From positions 5,052 to 69,051 of IMG/VR virus record IMGVR_UViG_3300030116_007754: a DNA stretch of 64,000 nt. The stretch is one strand, 5' to 3'. The notes under the pieces are model-generated. The model ran no database searches and had not been told where the DNA came from. It worked only from the letters and a program-made list of their open reading frames with translations. The position numbers were made by a program, and so were the translations under genes. Origin of the DNA: a virus. Each line of letters begins with the position of its first letter. Position 1 is the stretch's first letter. Shown here one piece after another: positions 2,916 to 60,051 of the stretch.

Positions 2916-5399
2916 TTACTTAGCAGTTACTGGATTTGTTCCGTCACCAATGAATGGGTGTTCAGCGAACGCTATATAAATAAACACTTCTCCAGATCTG
3001 TTACTACCTGCATTGTTACTTCTTAATTTAAATCCATTTGATAAAAAATCTATTTGTTCTGATCCTGTTGTTTCAGCGTTAGTTAAGTCTGGATAAACAA
3101 CACCATCCATTTGATTGAAAGGTGTACGTTTATTATCATACAAATACCAACTTGTTGCTCTTTGACGATTTCTAAGTAACAACCATGACGGCTTAAACCC
3201 AGTGTATATAAATGGACCATTTGAGTTTGCATTTCCCTTGTATGATCCAAATTTTGAAAAACCTTCTACTTCATGAAAAGCATACGTAACATAAGATTCT
3301 CCATTGCCATTAATAATTGCTGATGTTCCTAAAGTAATAACTGTGGATGATGGTGCCGTTGAATTGGTATAAGATGTGGATTGTATTTGTTGTTCAGCAT
3401 TATTTAAGTCTACAAAATATGAGCCGTCTGTTAATTTATGATGCCAAACCATCCAATCTCTATTATTAGTACTTGTATTTTTTGTTATTAGAAAAGTAGG
3501 TGCTTGTGATAGTCCGTGTCCAATAGTGGCTCCATTGGTACCATTACCAGTATGTTGAATTATGGAAAACCCAGCAGTTGAATTAACTTGAACGGTCGAA
3601 TCAATTGATCCTGTATCATTAGTTGAAGTAGTTCCTCCGTTACATACCCAATTCCAACTAACATATTTTTCATCTTGTGTATTAATAGATACATCATCTT
3701 CTATTTGAAATCCACCTTTTAAAAACTTTTGTAATCCATCTGTTGTTGTACTTTCTTGAGTTGTAGATATATTTAAATCTTTTTGTGGACCTCTATTACT
3801 ATCATAAATTTGATGAGCGTCAGAAGCATCTCTGTTTTTAATCCAAACCCAATCTGGTTGATCTTTATTGGTTTCTGCCATATTATCTTGTCGTAACATT
3901 TTAAAACCACTTGGAACACTATGATAAAAGTTTCCATTACCATCTCCATCTGAATTACCACCTGCTGTTTCATTACCATCAAAAGTAGGATTATCACCAA
4001 AGTTCCAATTAAAAGTATCACTGGATGTGACTGCCATAGCTGTAAACATAATTCTGCCTGGTCGCAGTATAGAAGCACTTCCAAGTGAACTTCCACTATT
4101 TGAATACCAAGTGACTAAAGAATTATCTACATCAACTGCGATACCAATTACATCACCAGCAGCAAGAGCAGTTCCAGTTAAATTTGTTTGAACTGACGAA
4201 GATAAAGTTGAACTTGTAAGCCATCTATTACCATCATTTCTTATTTGCATGCCAACACCACAACCATCACCATTTGACAATTGTCCTCCTGGATAAAAGT
4301 TATATGTGTTATCCCAATAGTGCATATCTTCTTGGATGTAAATACCAAATGTTATGACATTACCACCTCCATTACTAGATATTCGTGCTTCTGCATACCA
4401 TTTTCCGGAATTTGGTCTTAGTGTTGAACACATAGGATAACCAGCATTAGTTCCTGTAGGTGTGTATTGTAAATTACCTTTTCTTTGTGTAGTGACGTAA
4501 CTAGGGTTGTATGGTCTCATTGTAGGTAGATTATTTGTAGGTGTGTCACTTCGTTGGTCTGAAGTAGTTAAATTTGAAGATGCATAATCATTAGTATTTC
4601 CACTTGTGTCATCTCCCAGAGATGAACTATCTTGGAACTTCATTCTAAACCCATTTGTACCATATGTAATACCACTTAATGTCTTAGGAATCCATCTGCC
4701 AGTTGAAGTGTCAGTTAAACCAAAGGTTGTAGGAGCAACTATACTTCCATCAACTAAATTAAATTCAGCTAAATATCCATCAAGATTGTTTGAAGTGGCT
4801 CCAGTAAATCTACCAACATTATGCAATACAGTTGAATTTACTAATGTATCAAAATCTTGACTTGGTGCATTAGACCTATACCAACTTGTTACTTGATCAC
4901 CGTCAATGTAAAGTTTTATTCTGTCAGTTGAATTAGATTGAGTCGTGTCTACTTGTAATAAAATATGATACCATTTACTCGTATCTTCGAATGTTCTATT
5001 TGTCCAATATTCTATTTGTTCAGCACTACTTGAATATTCTCTTATATGTAATCTGTTTGCACCCTCCGTATCTCCACTTCCTGACCATTTAATATCAAAA
5101 AAAGAACTTCCACTTGAACCAGCATTAAAAATTCTTTGACCATAAGTATTGTTACCTACAGCATCACCTAATAGAGATCTTTTTGCCCATACTGAAACAG
5201 TAAATGTTTTTCTATTACCAGCACTACTTGGTGTTCTAGTTAGCGAAACATTTGAAGAAGAATCAAACATACAACTTTTATCAATTGTACCATTATCGGT
5301 ATATGGTAAGAATGTACCTACTCTTTGACCCTGACCATTACCTGAGTATATAGTTGTAAAGAAATACTCTTCTCCTCTAATGATTGCAGGGATAGGCAT
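2916..5399 (-). CDS. LamG + SPRY virion fibre protein, cassette 3 gene C
   Basis: YFFTTIYSGNG start, LamG, SPRY (SGKWYAE), then PDWVWIKNRD..AGFSII..HGLSQAP..GFSKFGSYKGN..YIAFAEHPF C-terminal domain. Confidence 0.75.
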   Translation of the reverse strand: MPIPAIIRGEEYFFTTIYSGNGQGQRVGTFLPYTDNGTIDKSCMFDSSSNVSLTRTPSSAGNRKTFTVSVWAKRSLLGDAVGNNTYGQRIFNAGSSGSSFFDIKWSGSGDTEGANRLHIREYSSSAEQIEYWTNRTFEDTSKWYHILLQVDTTQSNSTDRIKLYIDGDQVTSWYRSNAPSQDFDTLVNSTVLHNVGRFTGATSNNLDGYLAEFNLVDGSIVAPTTFGLTDTSTGRWIPKTLSGITYGTNGFRMKFQDSSSLGDDTSGNTNDYASSNLTTSDQRSDTPTNNLPTMRPYNPSYVTTQRKGNLQYTPTGTNAGYPMCSTLRPNSGKWYAEARISSNGGGNVITFGIYIQEDMHYWDNTYNFYPGGQLSNGDGCGVGMQIRNDGNRWLTSSTLSSSVQTNLTGTALAAGDVIGIAVDVDNSLVTWYSNSGSSLGSASILRPGRIMFTAMAVTSSDTFNWNFGDNPTFDGNETAGGNSDGDGNGNFYHSVPSGFKMLRQDNMAETNKDQPDWVWIKNRDASDAHQIYDSNRGPQKDLNISTTQESTTTDGLQKFLKGGFQIEDDVSINTQDEKYVSWNWVCNGGTTSTNDTGSIDSTVQVNSTAGFSIIQHTGNGTNGATIGHGLSQAPTFLITKNTSTNNRDWMVWHHKLTDGSYFVDLNNAEQQIQSTSYTNSTAPSSTVITLGTSAIINGNGESYVTYAFHEVEGFSKFGSYKGNANSNGPFIYTGFKPSWLLLRNRQRATSWYLYDNKRTPFNQMDGVVYPDLTNAETTGSEQIDFLSNGFKLRSNNAGSNRSGEVFIYIAFAEHPFIGDGTNPVTAK

Positions 5400-40917: not shown

Positions 40918-41208
40918 TTAACCGGCAAAAACGTTAGTACTACCTTGAGCAATAGAAGTACATTTCACTAATCCATCACCTACTCTTCCAGCTCCTCTGC
41001 CGTTAATAAAAACTGAACTTGATCCAGATTTAACTGCACCAACGTGTGGTGGACATTTATCTCCTTTTGGAAATACATGAACTGTGTTTATATCTCCTTT
41101 CCTTACAGCAGGCCTTGTATTAACAAAAACATCTGAAGACCCTGTAGCTCTAACCATACCACTACAATGTGGTACATCTAAATCTCCTATTCTTGATATT
41201 GCTGGCAT
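40918..41208 (-). CDS. PAAR spike-tip protein (T4 gp5.4-like)
   Basis: MPAISRIGD..GSSDVFVN.RPAVR.GD..H..CPPH..GSSSVFING..GRVGD..GSTNVFAG. Confidence 0.9.
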   Translation of the reverse strand: MPAISRIGDLDVPHCSGMVRATGSSDVFVNTRPAVRKGDINTVHVFPKGDKCPPHVGAVKSGSSSVFINGRGAGRVGDGLVKCTSIAQGSTNVFAG

Positions 41209-41217
41209 TTTATTCTC

Positions 41218-41757
41218 CTATGCTGTGTTACTAAAAAATGGTCTATTTTCATAATATTGTTGAACAAAAACTCTCATTCTTTCAAAATCATTTATAATAT
41301 CTTGTTCAACTACAAATACAAAACTATTAGAATATGCTAGTGATGCATTGCCACTTGGAGCAGTATTTGTATAATTAACAGTTACTTTATATTCTTTTGT
41401 AACTTTTTCTCTTAAATCTTGAACCAAATCAAAAAAATCTTGGTCTCTTGGTAAAAGGGTAGTGCCTACAATTGACTTAGCACTTTCATAATTTGTACTT
41501 CTTCCTCTATTTACATATTGAAAAATATCTGTAAAAGGAGTTACATATACTCCATTAGCTTGACATTGATTAGATGATAAACCAAAGAAACCACTGTTTG
41601 CTAAAAATACTGACTTAGTATTAGCTGATATAACTTCGATAGTAGTGTTTGATATATTGATAGATCCATTTGCACCTGATGCAGTTATTACTTGTGAAAA
41701 AGTTACATCAGGAAATACATTTGGAAGTTTGTCTGGAGAGAGAACAACATCAGCCAT
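41218..41757 (-). CDS. Hypothetical baseplate-region protein
   Basis: ORF coupled between gp5 and PAAR. Confidence 0.5.
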   Translation of the reverse strand: MADVVLSPDKLPNVFPDVTFSQVITASGANGSINISNTTIEVISANTKSVFLANSGFFGLSSNQCQANGVYVTPFTDIFQYVNRGRSTNYESAKSIVGTTLLPRDQDFFDLVQDLREKVTKEYKVTVNYTNTAPSGNASLAYSNSFVFVVEQDIINDFERMRVFVQQYYENRPFFSNTA

Positions 41758-53274: not shown

Positions 53275-54321
53275 TTATTTTTCCTTCTTTAACCAATTTG
53301 GATCAAACTTAGTAAGTTCTTTTCCATGTTTGAAGTATTTAGCCTGTTCAGCTGATGGTAATGGAATTAATCCTTTTGAGACCAAATAACCATCTTCACC
53401 AGTAGCTCTATTTGATGTGAATTCCAGTACATACTCTTTTATTCCTGGTATCACAGCAGCGTGGACATTCTTTACATAAAACCATAATGATCTTGAAACT
53501 GGATATGTACCATTACTAATTAATTCAAATTCTGGTAACACACCATTAACAGTTGATGCTTTTACTTTATCTCTATTTTCATCTAAAAATGAATAACCAA
53601 ATATACCTAATGAGTTAGGATTTGTTATCAATTTTTCGATTATTAAATTATCATTCTCACCAGCTTCTATATAAGGACCATCTGTTCTTATTGAACGACA
53701 TTCTGCTTTATATAATTTCTTATTATTTTCTTTAAGTTTTTTTCTACCTGGATAACTTTTACAACCTTTTTCTATAGCAAGTTCATTAAGTGCATCTCTA
53801 GTACCTGATGTTGGTGGAGGACCATAAACAAGAATAGGTAAATCTGGGTATGTAGGATTTATTTCATTCCATTTTTTATATGGATTTGGTTTTACAGTTT
53901 TACCAGTTGGATCCGCTGGTACATCTTTTGCAAGTGCAAGATATAAATCTCTTGTTGATAAATGAAAGTCAACACCTTTTTTAGAATTTGCAACAACTAT
54001 ACCATCATAACCTATTTTTACTTCTGTAATATCTTCTATACCATTTTTTTTACAATTGTTTACTTCAGTTTGTTTTATTCTTCTTGAAGCATTTGTAATA
54101 TCAGGATGTTCTGTACCAACACCTGCACAAAACAATTTCAATCCACCACCTGAACCAGTTGATTCTATTACTGGTGTCTTATAACCACTTGTTTTACCAA
54201 ATCGTTCTGCTACTACTGTTGCAAATGGATATACAGTTGAACTACCAACTACTTTAATTTGATCTCTTGCAAATACTGAACCTGCAAAAAGTATTGTAAA
54301 TAAAAAACATATTTTCTTCAT
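53275..54321 (-). CDS. pstS: Phosphate ABC transporter substrate-binding protein (AMG)
   Basis: Signal peptide, RDQIKVVGSSTVYPF..ESTGSGGG.KLFC.G..NASRRIK..GPPPTSGTRD..YPVSR.LWFYVK. Confidence 0.93.
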   Translation of the reverse strand: MKKICFLFTILFAGSVFARDQIKVVGSSTVYPFATVVAERFGKTSGYKTPVIESTGSGGGLKLFCAGVGTEHPDITNASRRIKQTEVNNCKKNGIEDITEVKIGYDGIVVANSKKGVDFHLSTRDLYLALAKDVPADPTGKTVKPNPYKKWNEINPTYPDLPILVYGPPPTSGTRDALNELAIEKGCKSYPGRKKLKENNKKLYKAECRSIRTDGPYIEAGENDNLIIEKLITNPNSLGIFGYSFLDENRDKVKASTVNGVLPEFELISNGTYPVSRSLWFYVKNVHAAVIPGIKEYVLEFTSNRATGEDGYLVSKGLIPLPSAEQAKYFKHGKELTKFDPNWLKKEK

Positions 54322-54396
54322 TCAATTCTCCTTAAAATTTTTATTTATTTTACAAAAATTAAAGTTCATAAAAACTTCATAATTATCTGTACATCT

Positions 54397-54930
54397 TTAT
54401 TTTTCTTTATAATCTTCACCTTTAAGATAACTTAAAATGTTCTGAGGTGATGTAACTCCATATGGATCACCAGGACAGTTATCTTCTCTTCCAGGTTCTT
54501 CAAATATCTTTTCAACACTACCAGCTGAAATAACAGCTGCATATCTCCAAGATCTTTTACCAAAACCTAGATTGGACTTTTCAACTAACATTCCCATACC
54601 AGAAGTAAATTCACAATTACCATCAGGTAAAACTTTTACATTTTGAATATTATGATGTTTAGCCCAAGCATTCATAACAAAAGAATCATTTACTGAAATA
54701 CAATAAATGTTATCAATACCTTCATTCTTAAACTGATCATACAATCTGTTAAAATCAGGTAATTGATATGTTGAACAAGTTGGAGTAAATGCTCCAGGTA
54801 AAGAAAACAATATATGTTTTCCCTTACCAAAATAATAATCAGTAGATCGTTCAACCCATTTAAAAGGATTATCGCCCTCTATGTTATCGTCTCTCTCTCT
54901 GACTTTAAATATTACGTGTGGTAAAATCAT
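54397..54930 (-). CDS. Peroxiredoxin, Prx5/redoxin type (AMG)
   Basis: FSLPGAFTPTCS..CISVNDSFVMNAW..LPDGN..GFGKRSWRYA. Confidence 0.92.
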   Translation of the reverse strand: MILPHVIFKVRERDDNIEGDNPFKWVERSTDYYFGKGKHILFSLPGAFTPTCSTYQLPDFNRLYDQFKNEGIDNIYCISVNDSFVMNAWAKHHNIQNVKVLPDGNCEFTSGMGMLVEKSNLGFGKRSWRYAAVISAGSVEKIFEEPGREDNCPGDPYGVTSPQNILSYLKGEDYKEK

Positions 54931-56848: not shown

Positions 56849-57241
56849 CTACTCTTTGCAACTACACTTTACTTCATAATCTTTGATCGCAGCTTTGATA
56901 GCGTCTTCTGCAAGAACAGAACAATGGATTTTAACTGGTGGTAACGCCAAAGTTGTTGCAATGTCAGTATTCCTAATTTTCGTTGCTTCATCTGTATTTT
57001 TTCCTTTTACCATTTCAGTTATAAGTGAACTAGATGCGATAGCTGAACCACATCCAAATGTTTTAAATTTAGCATCAGTAATAGTTTTAGTTTCTGGATC
57101 CACTTTTATCTGTAGTTTCATAACATCACCACAAGCTGGTGCACCTACTAATCCTGTTCCAACATTTGGATCCTCTTTATCCATAGACCCAACGTTTCTT
57201 GGATTCTCATAATGATCTATTAATTGTTTACTATATGCCAT
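56849..57241 (-). CDS. iscU: Fe-S cluster scaffold protein IscU (AMG)
   Basis: MAYS..IDHYENPRNVG..GAPACGDVMKLQI..FKTFGCGSAIASSS..LPPVKIHCSVLAEDAIKAA. Confidence 0.96.
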   Translation of the reverse strand: MAYSKQLIDHYENPRNVGSMDKEDPNVGTGLVGAPACGDVMKLQIKVDPETKTITDAKFKTFGCGSAIASSSLITEMVKGKNTDEATKIRNTDIATTLALPPVKIHCSVLAEDAIKAAIKDYEVKCSCKE

Positions 57242-57246
57242 ACTAA

Positions 57247-57254
57247 TATTTATA
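57247..57254 (-). promoter_or_regulatory. Late promoter TATAAATA directly before iscU
   Basis: TATAAATA-ttagt-ATG. Confidence 0.65.
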
Positions 57255-58188
57255 TAACTTTGAGCTCTTCAGTTATTCTCTTTATATAATGATCTCTAAC
57301 CATATCACCTTCGTGAACAAATAACATACAAGAGCAATATGCACAGTTTCTTCCTTGTAAAAGATACTCTAATATAATATGTTTATAATCCTTTATTTTA
57401 TTATTATGTTTAATCAATGGAATAGTATCAATATTATTCCTATCTAATAATTCAACTGAATTATATATAAAGTCTGTTGTATCTTCATGTTTCAAATTAT
57501 TTAACTTTAAAAAATTAGCATATTTTATTTTATCTCTATTATATAAACTAAACAATAAAGAATATACTGTACCAAATTGATGTTTCAATTCATCAGACTC
57601 AAATAGATCAGCTGTATCACTTATCAATCCATCAGGAGTAACATCACTAATAGCTGCCTTATCCCACAAGAAGTTCCATTCACTATCTAACATATATTCT
57701 AATAATTCTGTTAACTTTTTTGGATCACCGTTGTCTTCAATGTATTCTTTTCGATTACATTTGTAATCCATTTTAAAATAATACTGTTTGTTGAAAGGAT
57801 CATAATTAATTACATCTATTATATCAACTGAAGATCTTTTAAATATTCTAGAATTATCAACTATAGTTTTTTCTTTAACACTACATCCACCAATATAGTC
57901 AGGAAAAAAAGGTTGATATCTTGACTGAAAAATTCCTGTTTTATTCTTCCATACTTTTTTAGTTACTTGGTAACCCATATAAAAGATATCTGTCTTTATA
58001 ATATCTTCATAGTCGTTATCATTTTCAACATCTAATATATGATGAAATTTATAAGGTATGCCTGTACCTTTATAATAATGTTTGGATCCTTTCCATACAC
58101 GACCTCTAACATAAGTCAGATCATCATCTATAACTATTTGATTTGTTTTGTTACCTTGTTGATTATAGATTGGTACGATAGTAGTCAT
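57250..58188 (-). CDS. Hypothetical protein (312 aa, C-terminal CAYCSC)
   Basis: Long ORF between pqqA and iscU with its own promoter; family not recognised. Confidence 0.6.
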   Translation of the reverse strand: MTTIVPIYNQQGNKTNQIVIDDDLTYVRGRVWKGSKHYYKGTGIPYKFHHILDVENDNDYEDIIKTDIFYMGYQVTKKVWKNKTGIFQSRYQPFFPDYIGGCSVKEKTIVDNSRIFKRSSVDIIDVINYDPFNKQYYFKMDYKCNRKEYIEDNGDPKKLTELLEYMLDSEWNFLWDKAAISDVTPDGLISDTADLFESDELKHQFGTVYSLLFSLYNRDKIKYANFLKLNNLKHEDTTDFIYNSVELLDRNNIDTIPLIKHNNKIKDYKHIILEYLLQGRNCAYCSCMLFVHEGDMVRDHYIKRITEELKVI

Positions 58189-58193
58189 AATAC

Positions 58194-58222
58194 ATTGTAC
58201 CTTAGTTGAGAAAAAAAGTCAA
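58194..58222 (-). promoter_or_regulatory. sigma70 promoter TTGACT-N17-TACAAT (leaderless mRNA for 57250-58188)
   Basis: -35 at 58217-58222, -10 at 58194-58199, ATG after a 5-nt gap. Confidence 0.65.
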
Positions 58223-58253
58223 TGGGCTAGTTTCTATGAAAGACTTAGCCCAT
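58211..58253 (-). terminator. Intrinsic terminator downstream of pqqA
   Basis: Minus strand ATGGGCTAAG..loop..CTAGCCCAT followed by TGAC-TTTTTTT. Confidence 0.65.
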
Positions 58254-58264
58254 GACAAAAGAAA

Positions 58265-58342
58265 TTACTTCTCTGCGCAAGCGTAAGAGTTAATTTCAAG
58301 ACCTACAGAGATTTCTGTAATTTGAGGTTTTGTCCAAGACAT
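58265..58342 (-). CDS. pqqA: Pyrroloquinoline quinone precursor peptide PqqA
   Basis: Not in ORF track. MSWTKPQITEISVGLEINSYACAEK (25 aa): W-x-x-P leader, G-x-E-I-N-x-Y core with the E-xxx-Y pair that forms PQQ; strong RBS AAGGAG 5 nt before ATG; terminator after the stop. Confidence 0.9.
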   Translation of the reverse strand: MSWTKPQITEISVGLEINSYACAEK

Positions 58343-58373
58343 GTTTGCTCCTTATATTAATATTAATATTTGT

Positions 58374-58417
58374 TTGAGCCGGTTGCCGAACGACCGCGGT
58401 CCTCATACATTATTTAG
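58374..58417 (-). promoter_or_regulatory. Late-like promoter box CTAAATA and GC-rich 5' leader hairpin of pqqA
   Basis: CTAAATA at 58411-58417, then UGAG-GACCG-CGGU-CGUUCGGCA-ACCG-G-CUCA stem-loop in AT-rich surroundings. Confidence 0.5.
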
Positions 58418-58505
58418 AATACCATACTACATTGTATCTGAACCTACGATTAACAACTCGTTAAGAAAACTATATTTTTTGATTTTTTTTTATAATAATA
58501 ATCAA

Positions 58506-58649
58506 TTAGAAGTATTCACGAATCTTATCGAGAGGTTTTTTAAGTGGCTTATATACACTCATTATAAGTTCTACATGATTGTCTAACTTTTTTTCTATCC
58601 TATCAATTTGTTTTTGAATTTTGTCAAGTTTTTTTTCAAGATCAGACAC
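58506..58649 (-). CDS. Small coiled-coil hypothetical protein
   Basis: Not in ORF track. GTG start overlapping the iscA stop; 47 aa MSDLEKKLDKIQKQIDRIEKKLDNHVELIMSVYKPLKKPLDKIREYF. Confidence 0.55.
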   Translation of the reverse strand: MSDLEKKLDKIQKQIDRIEKKLDNHVELIMSVYKPLKKPLDKIREYF

Positions 58650-58965
58650 TGAAAGATTCTCCACAACCACAAGATGATTTAGTAAGTGGATTATTTATTT
58701 TAAGAAAACTTCCCATAAGTTCTTGAACATAATCAATCTCACTTCCCATAATATACATTTCTGCAACCTTATCTATAGCAAGTACAACATTATCTCTAAT
58801 TGGGTATATAGAGTGAGAATTATCGTAACTATCAAGATAATCCCACTTATAACTGAATCCAGCACATCCTCCTCCTGAAACTCCAAATGATATTATATCT
58901 TTGTTATTTTTCTTAGCAATAGAATACAAATATTCTTTTGCACTATCTGTTACTGTAACTATCAT
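58642..58965 (-). CDS. iscA: A-type Fe-S carrier, IscA/HesB family (AMG)
   Basis: VTDSAKEY..GVSGGGCAGFSY..GSEIDYV..GS...NP..SSCGCGESFSV. Confidence 0.93.
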   Translation of the reverse strand: MIVTVTDSAKEYLYSIAKKNNKDIISFGVSGGGCAGFSYKWDYLDSYDNSHSIYPIRDNVVLAIDKVAEMYIMGSEIDYVQELMGSFLKINNPLTKSSCGCGESFSV

Positions 58966-59713
58966 AAGTAAACATATTTCCTAAATTATCTGTTGCTTCT
59001 ATATAAACTTCTTTGTTAGAAGTATTTATTGGCATCATAAAAAATACATCTTGAGCAATACCAATAGTTCCATTATATTCCCAAACAAGTTTTTTATCAA
59101 CCCACATTTTTACATTATCAATATATTCAGCTGGAATCTCACTTCTGGTTAATTGATTGAATTGCATTCCTGAAAAGTTTGGATGCCATATTTTTATTTT
59201 AGTCCAACCATTTGTTTGTAGTAAGTTGATAGTTCCAAAAACCTTATCTGTTATATTCAATGGAGGTGCTGAACAACCTCCTGCAGCTTTAATAAATTGT
59301 TTGTTATATCTTTTATTACCGTAACTATCTTCTGATACTAAGGTCAAGTAAGTGTATGCATTTACTCTAACATTAGTCATTACAAATGGTTCTATATTGT
59401 GAAATTCAAACTCAGCACAACATGGTGATGGGTTGTCATCTATAATTAAAGTTAACTTTGTGAAGTATTGTATTCCTGTTCCAGCATCTCTAAGTGTAAC
59501 TTCTACACCAGCTGGATCTATTGCTCTATATGGTGCTTGGATTTGTACACTATCATCATAAAATAAATATTCATTTCCAAATATATCTTCCTTTAACCAT
59601 TCATCCCAAGTAGAAGTCTTAGCATATGTTGCAGAAGCTAACCATATAATTAATCCAAAGACTATCATCATTACATAAAAAAACCATTTTAAAAACCAAT
59701 CTGGATCCCTCAT
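58943..59713 (-). CDS. Fused SoxY/SoxZ-like carrier, quinoprotein-dehydrogenase-associated type
   Basis: N-terminal TM/signal; APYRA.D..V..LIIDDNPSP..F..TNVRVNAYT..KAAGGCSAPP (SoxY-like swinging arm) followed by HPNFSGMQ..Q..IPA.YI (SoxZ-like). Confidence 0.8.
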   Translation of the reverse strand: MRDPDWFLKWFFYVMMIVFGLIIWLASATYAKTSTWDEWLKEDIFGNEYLFYDDSVQIQAPYRAIDPAGVEVTLRDAGTGIQYFTKLTLIIDDNPSPCCAEFEFHNIEPFVMTNVRVNAYTYLTLVSEDSYGNKRYNKQFIKAAGGCSAPPLNITDKVFGTINLLQTNGWTKIKIWHPNFSGMQFNQLTRSEIPAEYIDNVKMWVDKKLVWEYNGTIGIAQDVFFMMPINTSNKEVYIEATDNLGNMFTYDSYSNR

Positions 59714-60051
59714 CTATTTCTCCAATCTCTTTTGTCGCCTCTCGGCTGTGTTACTGTTTTGACACATATGTGGTTACTATGTGTAGTTATTACAAATTCA
59801 TCTCTCACTTCTTTATAATCCTGACATCTATAATGACACTTAACAGAGTCATCACCAAAGAAAGGTTCTACTCTTTTTTCTTTTACTAATCTACAAGAGA
59901 CAAAGTATTGATTTCTTTGATCATATAATCTACCTTTACCACTCCACTTGTAGTTATTAACTAATGTAGGATGTACACAATTAGGTGTATGTATATGACT
60001 TATTGTCAATGTAGGATAAAACAAAATTATTAGTATTAAAAATATTCTCAT
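59710..60051 (-). CDS. Secreted Cys-containing hypothetical protein
   Basis: Signal-like N-terminus, five Cys; ATGA-coupled to the SoxYZ-like gene. Confidence 0.55.
   Translation of the reverse strand: MRIFLILIILFYPTLTISHIHTPNCVHPTLVNNYKWSGKGRLYDQRNQYFVSCRLVKEKRVEPFFGDDSVKCHYRCQDYKEVRDEFVITTHSNHICVKTVTQPRGDKRDWRNR

Follow-up and report, generated by a model that had tools for sequence, protein, structure and literature searches.

A candidate host-derived gene set centred on the PQQ cofactor in a T4-like marine phage

Genes at the locus

The DNA analysed here, called the window in the following, is a stretch of 64,000 nucleotides corresponding to positions 5052–69,051 of one 69,051 bp viral contig (IMG/VR record IMGVR_UViG_3300030116_007754), which represents only part of a phage genome. 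The contig has a G+C content of approximately 32% and carries the genes of a T4-like myovirus, with portal, sheath, tube, terminase, baseplate, gp32 and gp59 recognized in PHROG scans. Compared with the closest phages on deposit, cyanomyoviruses and the Pelagibacter phage Mosig, the portal is below 60% and gp32 approximately 53% identical, which places the contig in a deep uncultured marine lineage. The subject of this work is a set of genes in an accessory stretch of the minus strand, upstream of sleB, a cupin gene and gp59. In the order of transcription, it consists of orf113, a SoxYZ-like carrier gene, a gene for an A-type carrier of iron-sulfur (Fe-S) clusters, a small open reading frame (ORF), pqqA, an ORF of 312 codons and iscU, pqqA encoding the precursor peptide of pyrroloquinoline quinone (PQQ). 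The initial annotation of the window had described the last six as co-oriented genes with overlapping junctions. All six were indeed found on the minus strand at the positions given below, and their identities were borne out by curated cut-offs or family matches wherever a family exists. The carrier gene and the A-type gene overlap by 23 nt, the A-type gene and the small ORF by 29 nt (8 nt from a later GTG start), and the stop of orf113 overlaps the start of the carrier gene by 4 nt. These junctions suggest co-translation.

The pqqA gene (58265–58342, minus strand) encodes a peptide of 25 residues with a Glu-x3-Tyr core (EINSY), which scored 39.6 bits with TIGR02107 (cut-off 20) and 35.1 bits with PF08042 (cut-off 21.1). 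PqqA is the consumed precursor of PQQ, one peptide being used per PQQ molecule, and the Glu and Tyr of its core are the residues cross-linked during the synthesis. The core (...GLEINSY...) was invariant over 52 viral loci and was the same as that of PqqA in the bacterial family proposed below as the candidate host. Across all 25 residues the phage and candidate-host-family peptides showed 88% identity; they differed at positions 7 and 9 and matched in length and at the C-terminus. Among the phage copies, variation was restricted to positions 2, 4, 7, 12 and 25. The ratio of nonsynonymous to synonymous polymorphism (pN/pS), calculated from 23 distinct 25-codon copies in T4-like contigs, was 0.11 overall and 0.009 for codons 8–24, and pqqA is under strong purifying selection.

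A Shine-Dalgarno-like AAGGAG motif (58348–58353, minus strand) is located 5 nt 5' of the pqqA ATG, and such a motif was present within 20 nt upstream of 86 of the 90 distinct viral pqqA copies. Directly 3' of the gene, a hairpin and the seven consecutive U after it (58211–58256, minus strand) look like an intrinsic terminator from the sequence and from RNA folding. The hairpin had a folding energy of −16.4 kcal/mol (z −3.69), and none of 200 shuffled sequences folded as well; a consensus terminator scan of the segment 56700–60300 listed no terminator, including at this hairpin. By our own criterion, a similar hairpin with a T run followed pqqA in six of the seven candidate-host copies inspected and in 37 of the 90 viral copies. 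The fold of a G+C-rich patch in the AT-rich spacer upstream of pqqA (approximately 58375–58401, minus strand) did not go beyond that of shuffled sequences (z −0.48). The phage pqqA stands without adjoining pqqBCDE genes, the corresponding enzymes being present in the candidate host. The absence of pqqB–E and of a dehydrogenase gene, first noted for the window, held for the entire 69,051 bp contig when it was searched by tblastn with the proteins of the candidate host. An unannotated pqqA was probably missed by routine annotation owing to its size of 25 codons.

The carrier gene (58943–59713, minus strand) encodes a fused SoxY-SoxZ-like protein of 256 residues, with Pfam SoxY matching at residues 42–147 and SoxZ at residues 172–250. 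It scored 143.2 bits with TIGR04557 (cut-off 140), compared to 30.5 bits with the true SoxY model (cut-off 125) and 29.2 bits with the true SoxZ model (cut-off 76). Judged by these models, and by a narrow margin, the carrier is a member of the quinoprotein-associated family TIGR04557 and not a true SoxY or SoxZ. Its reactive-cysteine motif, GGCSAP (Cys147), is internal and is not the C-terminal GGCGG. The GGCSA portion (G145-G146-C147-S148) and the pair Cys98-Cys99 were invariant in the phage carriers. An N-terminal hydrophobic helix may be an export signal or an anchor. The predicted structure (mean predicted local distance difference test score of 76) showed a helix at residues 6–31 and two beta-sandwich domains, with a low-confidence loop around Cys147, a residue that aligned with the sulfur-binding Cys of the solved SoxY chains. 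Foldseek searches of the PDB returned one specific match, the SoxY chain 4uwq_K of a SoxB-SoxYZ complex, with a target-normalized template modelling (TM) score of 0.66, the other matches being mostly generic tandem immunoglobulin-like folds.

The A-type Fe-S cluster carrier (58642–58965, minus strand; 107 residues) matched PF01521 and TIGR00049 (85.8 bits against a cut-off of 58.8), and its translation shows cysteines in GGGCAGF and SSCGCGESF. The equivalog scores were below cut-off for IscA (65.8 against 150.6 and 54.9 against 181), ErpA (77.5 against 117) and SufA (70.7 against 136.2), and the name iscA is therefore used only as a convenience label. The assignment of iscU (56849–57241, minus strand), an Fe-S cluster scaffold, relies on TIGR01999 (215.7 bits against a cut-off of 192.4), PF01592 and phrog_8429, a PHROG described as a NifU-like auxiliary metabolic gene. 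All three cluster cysteines are present in the protein, as is the LPPVK motif for chaperone binding (GAPACGD, FGCGSAIASSS and LPPVKIHC). When the region was compared to the GenBank phage nucleotide sequences, iscU was the only match. IscU and A-type proteins build and deliver Fe-S clusters, and PqqE is a radical S-adenosylmethionine (SAM) enzyme with several such clusters; we infer that the two Fe-S genes could serve PqqE among other clients. A relative that carries pqqA and iscU without SoxYZ (contig L150) encodes at 1271–2026, on the plus strand, a protein of 251 residues whose translation resembles an Fe-S subunit of succinate dehydrogenase/fumarate reductase.

Three other ORFs complete the stretch. 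The first, orf113 (59710–60051, minus strand), was not in the initial list. It encodes a small exported protein of approximately 80 mature residues, with four cysteines (C53, C72, C76 and C96) invariant in the alignment. No match was found in Pfam, NCBIfam or PHROGs, and its atlas clusters were viral only, so that it has been seen solely in viruses so far. A homologue was situated directly after pqqA in 12 of 80 other viral loci (for example L174:2092–2337 and L156:1697–1942), and orf113 may be a further piece of a PQQ-linked set. The small ORF (58506–58670, minus strand) belongs to no family and was present in 10 of 12 related loci with 54–87% identity. The length of 47 residues first given for it corresponds to the GTG at 58649; a longer version of 54 residues also starts with GTG. 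Matches to this protein in Pfam, NCBIfam and PHROGs were all below threshold and of coiled-coil type, and it is probably a coiled coil.

The 312-codon ORF (57250–58188, minus strand) had no match in Pfam, NCBIfam or PHROGs. The initial annotation included it in the module, from which our comparison removes it, as it occupies the pqqA–iscU interval in only three of the 11 related loci that reach this point. In other clades it follows gp59, and copies outside the window lie at L001:6001–6951 and L113:8870–9799. A hypothetical protein of Synechococcus phage S-CREM1, encoded there among tRNA genes, is 44% identical to its product. Contigs from a DNA run and from an RNA library join pqqA to iscU without the 312-codon gene; one of them, an RNA-library contig of 639 nt, joins a phage-type pqqA to iscU. 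An HNH-endonuclease lead obtained for the protein was weak (atlas score of 0.77, below the level that counts). This gene is an optional, mobile-looking passenger insert outside the conserved set.

Conservation among related viruses

Deposited phage genomes (50,697 records) contained no match to the carrier and none to PqqA at E ≤ 1. The relatives were found among IMG/VR contigs. The clade of the window comprised 12 contigs with carriers 64–86% identical to that of the window, and the order carrier, iscA, small ORF, pqqA, iscU, sleB, cupin, orf69 and gp59 was kept. Both pqqA and iscU were present in all 11 loci of this clade that extended past iscA. Two divergent SoxYZ clades, with carriers 42–52% identical to that of the window, showed a different order: sleB, carrier, 2.5 to 4.3 kb of other genes, pqqA, orf69 and gp59. 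ORFs resembling phoH and peptidase genes were recognized, from their translations, among the genes in between. In these clades pqqA was found in 29 of 45 loci, and in the other 16 the DNA ended within 2.8 kb after the carrier. A search seeded with gp59 revealed a further clade (gp59 77% identical) with pqqA followed by iscU.

Accordingly, pqqA is the constant element, shared by all the related phage clades, and the carrier has been retained together with it across deeply divergent phages. The genes had initially been seen as one coherent four-gene module. What stood of this proposal is the co-retention of SoxYZ and pqqA over three clades; the isc genes occur in two arrangements with pqqA and are not obligatory.

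The core pattern of pqqA was present in at least 120 IMG/VR contigs, 80 loci of which were inspected. In 39 of these 80 loci, pqqA was located inside the structural module, flanked by the portal gene and by a GroES-like ORF recognized from the sequence. This podovirus-like lineage (L199:1983–2108, minus strand, and 38 similar loci) has portals approximately 40% identical to those of the Pelagibacter phages HTVC023P and HTVC027P and of the Roseobacter phages CRP-901 and CRP-902. A third context was seen in three of the 80 loci (L169, L198 and L212), in which overlapping iscA and iscU genes converge on pqqA among different neighbours; in L169, iscA–iscU are at 793–1508 on the plus strand and pqqA near 1986–2054 on the minus strand. 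The same core scan also yielded a second peptide type (...KEISVGLEINCYACAEI/L) among the pqqA copies.

The island that holds the gene set also contains pstS, peroxiredoxin, cupin and cell-wall hydrolase genes. In the window, pstS and the adjoining peroxiredoxin gene lie at 53275–54930 on the minus strand, and the relatives carry one, both or neither at that spot. Two further observations concern the structural part of the phage. At 777–26754 (minus strand), at least seven large paralogous genes (450–827 codons) matched the same PHROGs, phrog_19943 and phrog_27411, described as virion structural or tail-fibre protein, and smaller fibre-like genes are interleaved with this array. Within the baseplate block, at 40918–41757 (minus strand), a PAAR-motif gene is followed by an ORF of 179 codons, which matches a PHROG labelled "toxin" (phrog_23903, E 4e-12).

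Candidate host and bacterial context of the carrier

As the PqqA peptides of Alphaproteobacteria resemble that of the phage, an even sample of this class was searched. Host scoring covered 801 genomes, 401 from Alphaproteobacteria and 400 from Gammaproteobacteria. A PqqA match was found in 62 of the 401 alphaproteobacterial genomes, and the top three, G332, G202 and G017 (1.4–1.6 Mb), showed 88% identity. The same three genomes were the top three of 401 for the phage PstS, with 71–73% identity and 566–572 bits, compared to 62% and 461 bits for the next-best alphaproteobacterial protein. In the control made with the 400 Gammaproteobacteria, the best PstS reached 62% and 465 bits; G755 and G588 were among 31 weaker gammaproteobacterial matches, and no claim is based on either. 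IscU, which discriminates poorly, ranked the three genomes second, fourth and sixth of 401. The loci fetched from them had 28–34% G+C.

The GTDB family of G332, G202 and G017 comprises 42 genomes of 0.8–2.0 Mb. A phage-like pqqA was present in 39 of them, in up to five copies. Matches over cut-off were obtained for the TIGR04557 carrier in 32 genomes, for pqqE in 28 and for a PQQ-dependent dehydrogenase of the methanol/ethanol family in 25; SoxB was over cut-off in none of the 42. In G332, an island assembles the carrier, the dehydrogenase, a cytochrome c, a MoxJ-like protein, pqqE-D-C-B-A and ATP-binding cassette (ABC) genes of the PQQ system. The pqqA copies of the family are dispersed (L291–L296), most with their own hairpin and T run and several far from pqqBCDE. 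The host is likely a member of this small-genome, low-GC marine alphaproteobacterial family with an XoxF-like, PQQ-dependent methanol/alcohol oxidation. The initial annotation proposed that the predicted host be checked for pqqBCDE and PQQ enzymes, and both are present in this best candidate, itself called by similarity. According to a 2025 study (PMC11996626), the marine xoxF5 genes with the highest expression belong to an alphaproteobacterial "Clade X" of unplaced position; the candidate host family may be this clade.

The carrier family was also followed in bacteria, in a sample of 80 loci, mostly from soil Alphaproteobacteria, with 28–38% identity to the phage carrier. That fused carriers of the GGCSAP type lie beside PQQ genes in bacteria, as stated in the initial annotation, proved correct in the loci tested. 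PQQ-pathway families were present in six of eight loci sampled, in the form of pqqE or pqqBCE, of the PQQ-system ABC transporter, or of a methanol/ethanol-family PQQ dehydrogenase accompanied by cytochrome c and a MoxJ-like protein. A pqqA was found in 38 of the 80 loci, mostly upstream and on the same strand. The TIGR04559 zinc metallohydrolase stood beside the carrier in six of the eight loci. Bacteria and the candidate host show the expected context; near the phage carrier, pqqA is the only gene of this kind, with no dehydrogenase or hydrolase. When the proteins of the host island were compared by tblastn with 153 viral sequences (1.03 Mb), the carrier was the sole one matched: no dehydrogenase, cytochrome, MoxJ, pqqB–E or hydrolase was found. 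In a quick tree (quick search, midpoint root, composition warnings), 18 phage carriers formed one group on a long branch, with a support of 100 in the Shimodaira-Hasegawa-like approximate likelihood ratio test (SH-aLRT), and the bacterial branch nearest to this group was the pair from the candidate host.

In 66 of 110 bacterial loci, which include some duplicates and the candidate host, a small exported protein with four conserved cysteines is encoded convergently to the carrier (for example L069:10821–11180 and L293:18678–19007, both minus strand); no NCBIfam model matched it. A relationship of orf113 to this protein was considered and rejected, since tblastn gave nothing in either direction and hhalign returned a probability of 0.6%.

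Interpretation and comparison with known systems

We incline, with modest confidence, to the view that the locus is a host-derived auxiliary gene set of a T4-like marine phage, centred on the PQQ cofactor. In this model, the phage pqqA, equipped with a ribosome-binding site and a terminator-like hairpin of its own, would go on supplying precursor to the host PqqB–E after the failure of host gene expression, and the quinoprotein and its electron flow would be kept running for phage replication. The exported carrier would use its conserved cysteine in the service of the periplasmic quinoprotein system rather than of thiosulfate oxidation by Sox; this role is suggested by the predicted export of the carrier and by the position of the host homologue, beside xoxF in a pqq island. 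IscU and the A-type carrier would be a lineage-specific add-on with PqqE as one plausible client, orf113 and the 54-codon ORF conserved companions, and the 312-codon gene a passenger. A wider proposal, which we hold more tentatively and consider possible, is that the fused soxYZ of T4-like phages in the surface ocean, widely cited as evidence for viral sulfur oxidation, forms half of a viral support kit for PQQ and quinoproteins, which would keep lanthanide/PQQ-dependent methanol/alcohol oxidation running in an abundant, uncultured and streamlined alphaproteobacterial family during infection. The kit would combine the PQQ precursor peptide, a periplasmic cysteine carrier and, in this lineage, Fe-S proteins for the radical-SAM step.

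Several observations weigh against these proposals. The carrier exceeds the TIGR04557 cut-off by only 3 bits, and the model also fires in a Thermus control genome. The phage carrier is only 37% identical to that of G332, in which the Cys-Cys pair is lacking, and the phage set does not include the zinc metallohydrolase that accompanies bacterial carriers; no experimental test of the function of the SoxYZ-like family was found in the literature searched. The host assignment relies on the similarity of sequences sampled from only two classes, and is limited by the absence of tRNA genes from the window. The RNA libraries consisted of assembled contigs only, so that transcription of the phage copy cannot be demonstrated from them. 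They gave little or no cover of the SoxYZ, 54-codon and 312-codon genes, and their high-depth pqqA pieces are probably host transcripts, because the flanks resemble the terminator region of the candidate host's pqqA. As for the genes themselves, iscA and iscU were found in none of the 45 divergent-clade loci, and the gp59-seeded clade showed neither carrier nor iscA, over 4.7 kb upstream in one locus and in a 62 kb contig. In 49 of the 80 pqqA loci inspected, none of the genes of the window was present within 2 kb. As the set is not fixed, the co-location may partly reflect the hypervariable island between sleB and gp59.

These last points belong to an alternative according to which the genes have no joint function: the island would be a hypervariable collection of independent host-derived genes and their adjacency the product of a parking spot for accessory genes in T4-like phages. 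pqqA would then feed PQQ synthesis, IscU and IscA a general Fe-S demand, and the carrier would be unrelated to either. The partly independent assortment of the genes across clades, the 2.5–4.3 kb of other genes that separate SoxYZ from pqqA in the divergent clades, and the sharing of the island with pstS, peroxiredoxin, cupin and cell-wall hydrolase genes fit such a picture. So do the IscU-type genes of unrelated phages, the succinate-dehydrogenase-like Fe-S subunit read from the translation of one relative, which agrees with a general Fe-S role and counts against a PQQ-centred one, and the frequency of NifU and IscA near many viral sulfur genes in Kieft 2021 (PMC8190135), which also counts against it. 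However, the SoxYZ-like/pqqA link exists in bacteria too, and joint retention over deep phage divergence is for this reason unlikely to be purely positional. Moreover, two distinct arrangements place pqqA next to isc genes, and the overlapping junctions suggest co-translation. We regard the absence of any joint function as somewhat unlikely.

A second alternative is the published reading of viral soxYZ, namely that the gene boosts thiosulfate oxidation in sulfur-oxidizing hosts, SUP05/Thioglobus-like Gammaproteobacteria; the Fe-S genes would follow the same theme, and pqqA would be an unrelated neighbour. Roux 2016 (bioRxiv 10.1101/053090) describes soxYZ on contigs of the T4 superfamily, with PhoH and "Fe-S biosyn" neighbours and with transcripts in three metatranscriptomes, and interprets it as a boost of sulfur oxidation. 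In Kieft 2021 (PMC8190135), viral soxYZ has ggCs and CC motifs, a ratio of nonsynonymous to synonymous substitution rates (dN/dS) below 1 and frequent NifU, IscA and PhoH neighbours. The hosts suggested there are SUP05/Thioglobus and possibly Methylophilaceae, and the ratio of phage to total soxYZ genes is 34% in Tara samples. The motifs, the purifying selection, the transcripts and the preference for proteobacterial sulfur oxidizers as hosts in these two studies all speak for the sulfur reading, as does the alignment of the SoxY half with solved SoxY chains, including the sulfur-binding cysteine, SoxY being also the best specific structural match. Against it, the true SoxY and SoxZ models remain far below their cut-offs (30.5 and 29.2 bits against 125 and 76) whereas the quinoprotein-associated model passes, and the cysteine is in an internal GGCSAP. 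Three phage clades have the carrier together with pqqA, and neither PQQ nor pqqA occurs in Kieft 2021 or in the soxYZ passages of Roux 2016. In the best-matching host family, the carrier is beside xoxF and pqq genes and SoxB is over cut-off in none of the 42 genomes; the phage PstS is much closer to this alphaproteobacterial family than to any of the 400 Gammaproteobacteria. Taken together, we judge the sulfur-oxidation reading improbable for this locus. Finally, it is very improbable that the phage peptide is a decoy or inhibitor occupying the host PqqD/PqqE, or the precursor of a different product, as the lack of any pqqB–E in these phages, the variation at positions 2, 4, 7, 12 and 25 and the differences from the host at positions 7 and 9 would allow: the core with the cross-linked Glu and Tyr is invariant and identical to that of the host, length and C-terminus match as well, and the multiple pqqA copies of the host itself point to precursor demand.

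The PQQ-centred reading has to be placed beside what is already published, namely viral soxYZ with Fe-S neighbours, and viral pqqA. From the published descriptions, the carrier probably is the same gene family as the viral soxYZ of Roux 2016 and Kieft 2021. The ggCs and CC motifs correspond to G145-G146-C147-S148 and C98-C99, and the PhoH and Fe-S neighbours are shared. The differences are that here the carrier scores as quinoprotein-associated and travels with pqqA, and that the best host candidate is without SoxB. Since the carrier and its Fe-S neighbourhood are in print under the sulfur reading, the find is less unprecedented than the initial annotation implied. Viral pqqA together with methanol dehydrogenase is reported, in Coutinho 2020 (PMC7678222), from T4-like viruses of Lake Baikal with predicted Methylophilaceae hosts. 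The likeness lies in a T4-like phage pqqA as an auxiliary gene for quinoprotein methanol oxidation. The Baikal viruses are freshwater, have a betaproteobacterial host prediction and carry the methanol dehydrogenase gene, whereas the present phage is marine, has an alphaproteobacterial host prediction, adds the SoxYZ-like carrier and the Fe-S genes, and shows no dehydrogenase in 1.03 Mb of related viral DNA. Neither SoxY nor IscU occurs in that paper. In the Melnitz paper, PQQ appears solely as a supplement to the medium. The joint occurrence of pqqA and the carrier with its Fe-S neighbours, the placement of the carrier in its family, the occurrence of pqqA across marine phages and the candidate host are new with respect to the literature searched.

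The bacterial TIGR04557/TIGR04559 system has in common with the phage genes the fused SoxY-SoxZ architecture, the internal GGCS cysteine and the link to pqqA–E or PQQ dehydrogenases. Its members reach 222–270 bits with TIGR04557 compared to 143 bits for the phage protein, which appears to be a distant member. Furthermore, the phage carrier has an invariant Cys-Cys pair that is not seen in the carrier of the candidate host, and the phage set is without the exported four-cysteine companion of the bacterial loci. None of the papers listed for the "SoxYZ-like carrier" concerns phages. The present work provides independent genomic evidence on this bacterial family. IscU-type scaffolds are known in phages (phrog_8429; Acinetobacter phage MD-2021a and Phage C48C1); here, by comparison, iscU lies directly beside pqqA, in two different arrangements.

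If the wider proposal is true, the 25-codon pqqA would be among the commoner marine viral metabolic genes, present in at least three phage lineages. If the carrier gene belongs to the PQQ/XoxF system, the sulfur function of viral soxYZ would be misassigned in the published marine estimates, and the viral influence would fall on the oxidation of methanol and other alcohols and on lanthanide-dependent metabolism. Two pairs lend themselves to testing, the phage peptide with the host PqqD/PqqE and the phage carrier with the host XoxF. A precedent in its logic may be the psbA gene of cyanophages. There, the phage carries a rapidly consumed component of the host energy system, which runs on after host expression has stopped. 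The logic proposed for pqqA would be the same by analogy, with the difference that PqqA is a consumed substrate peptide and not a protein subunit.

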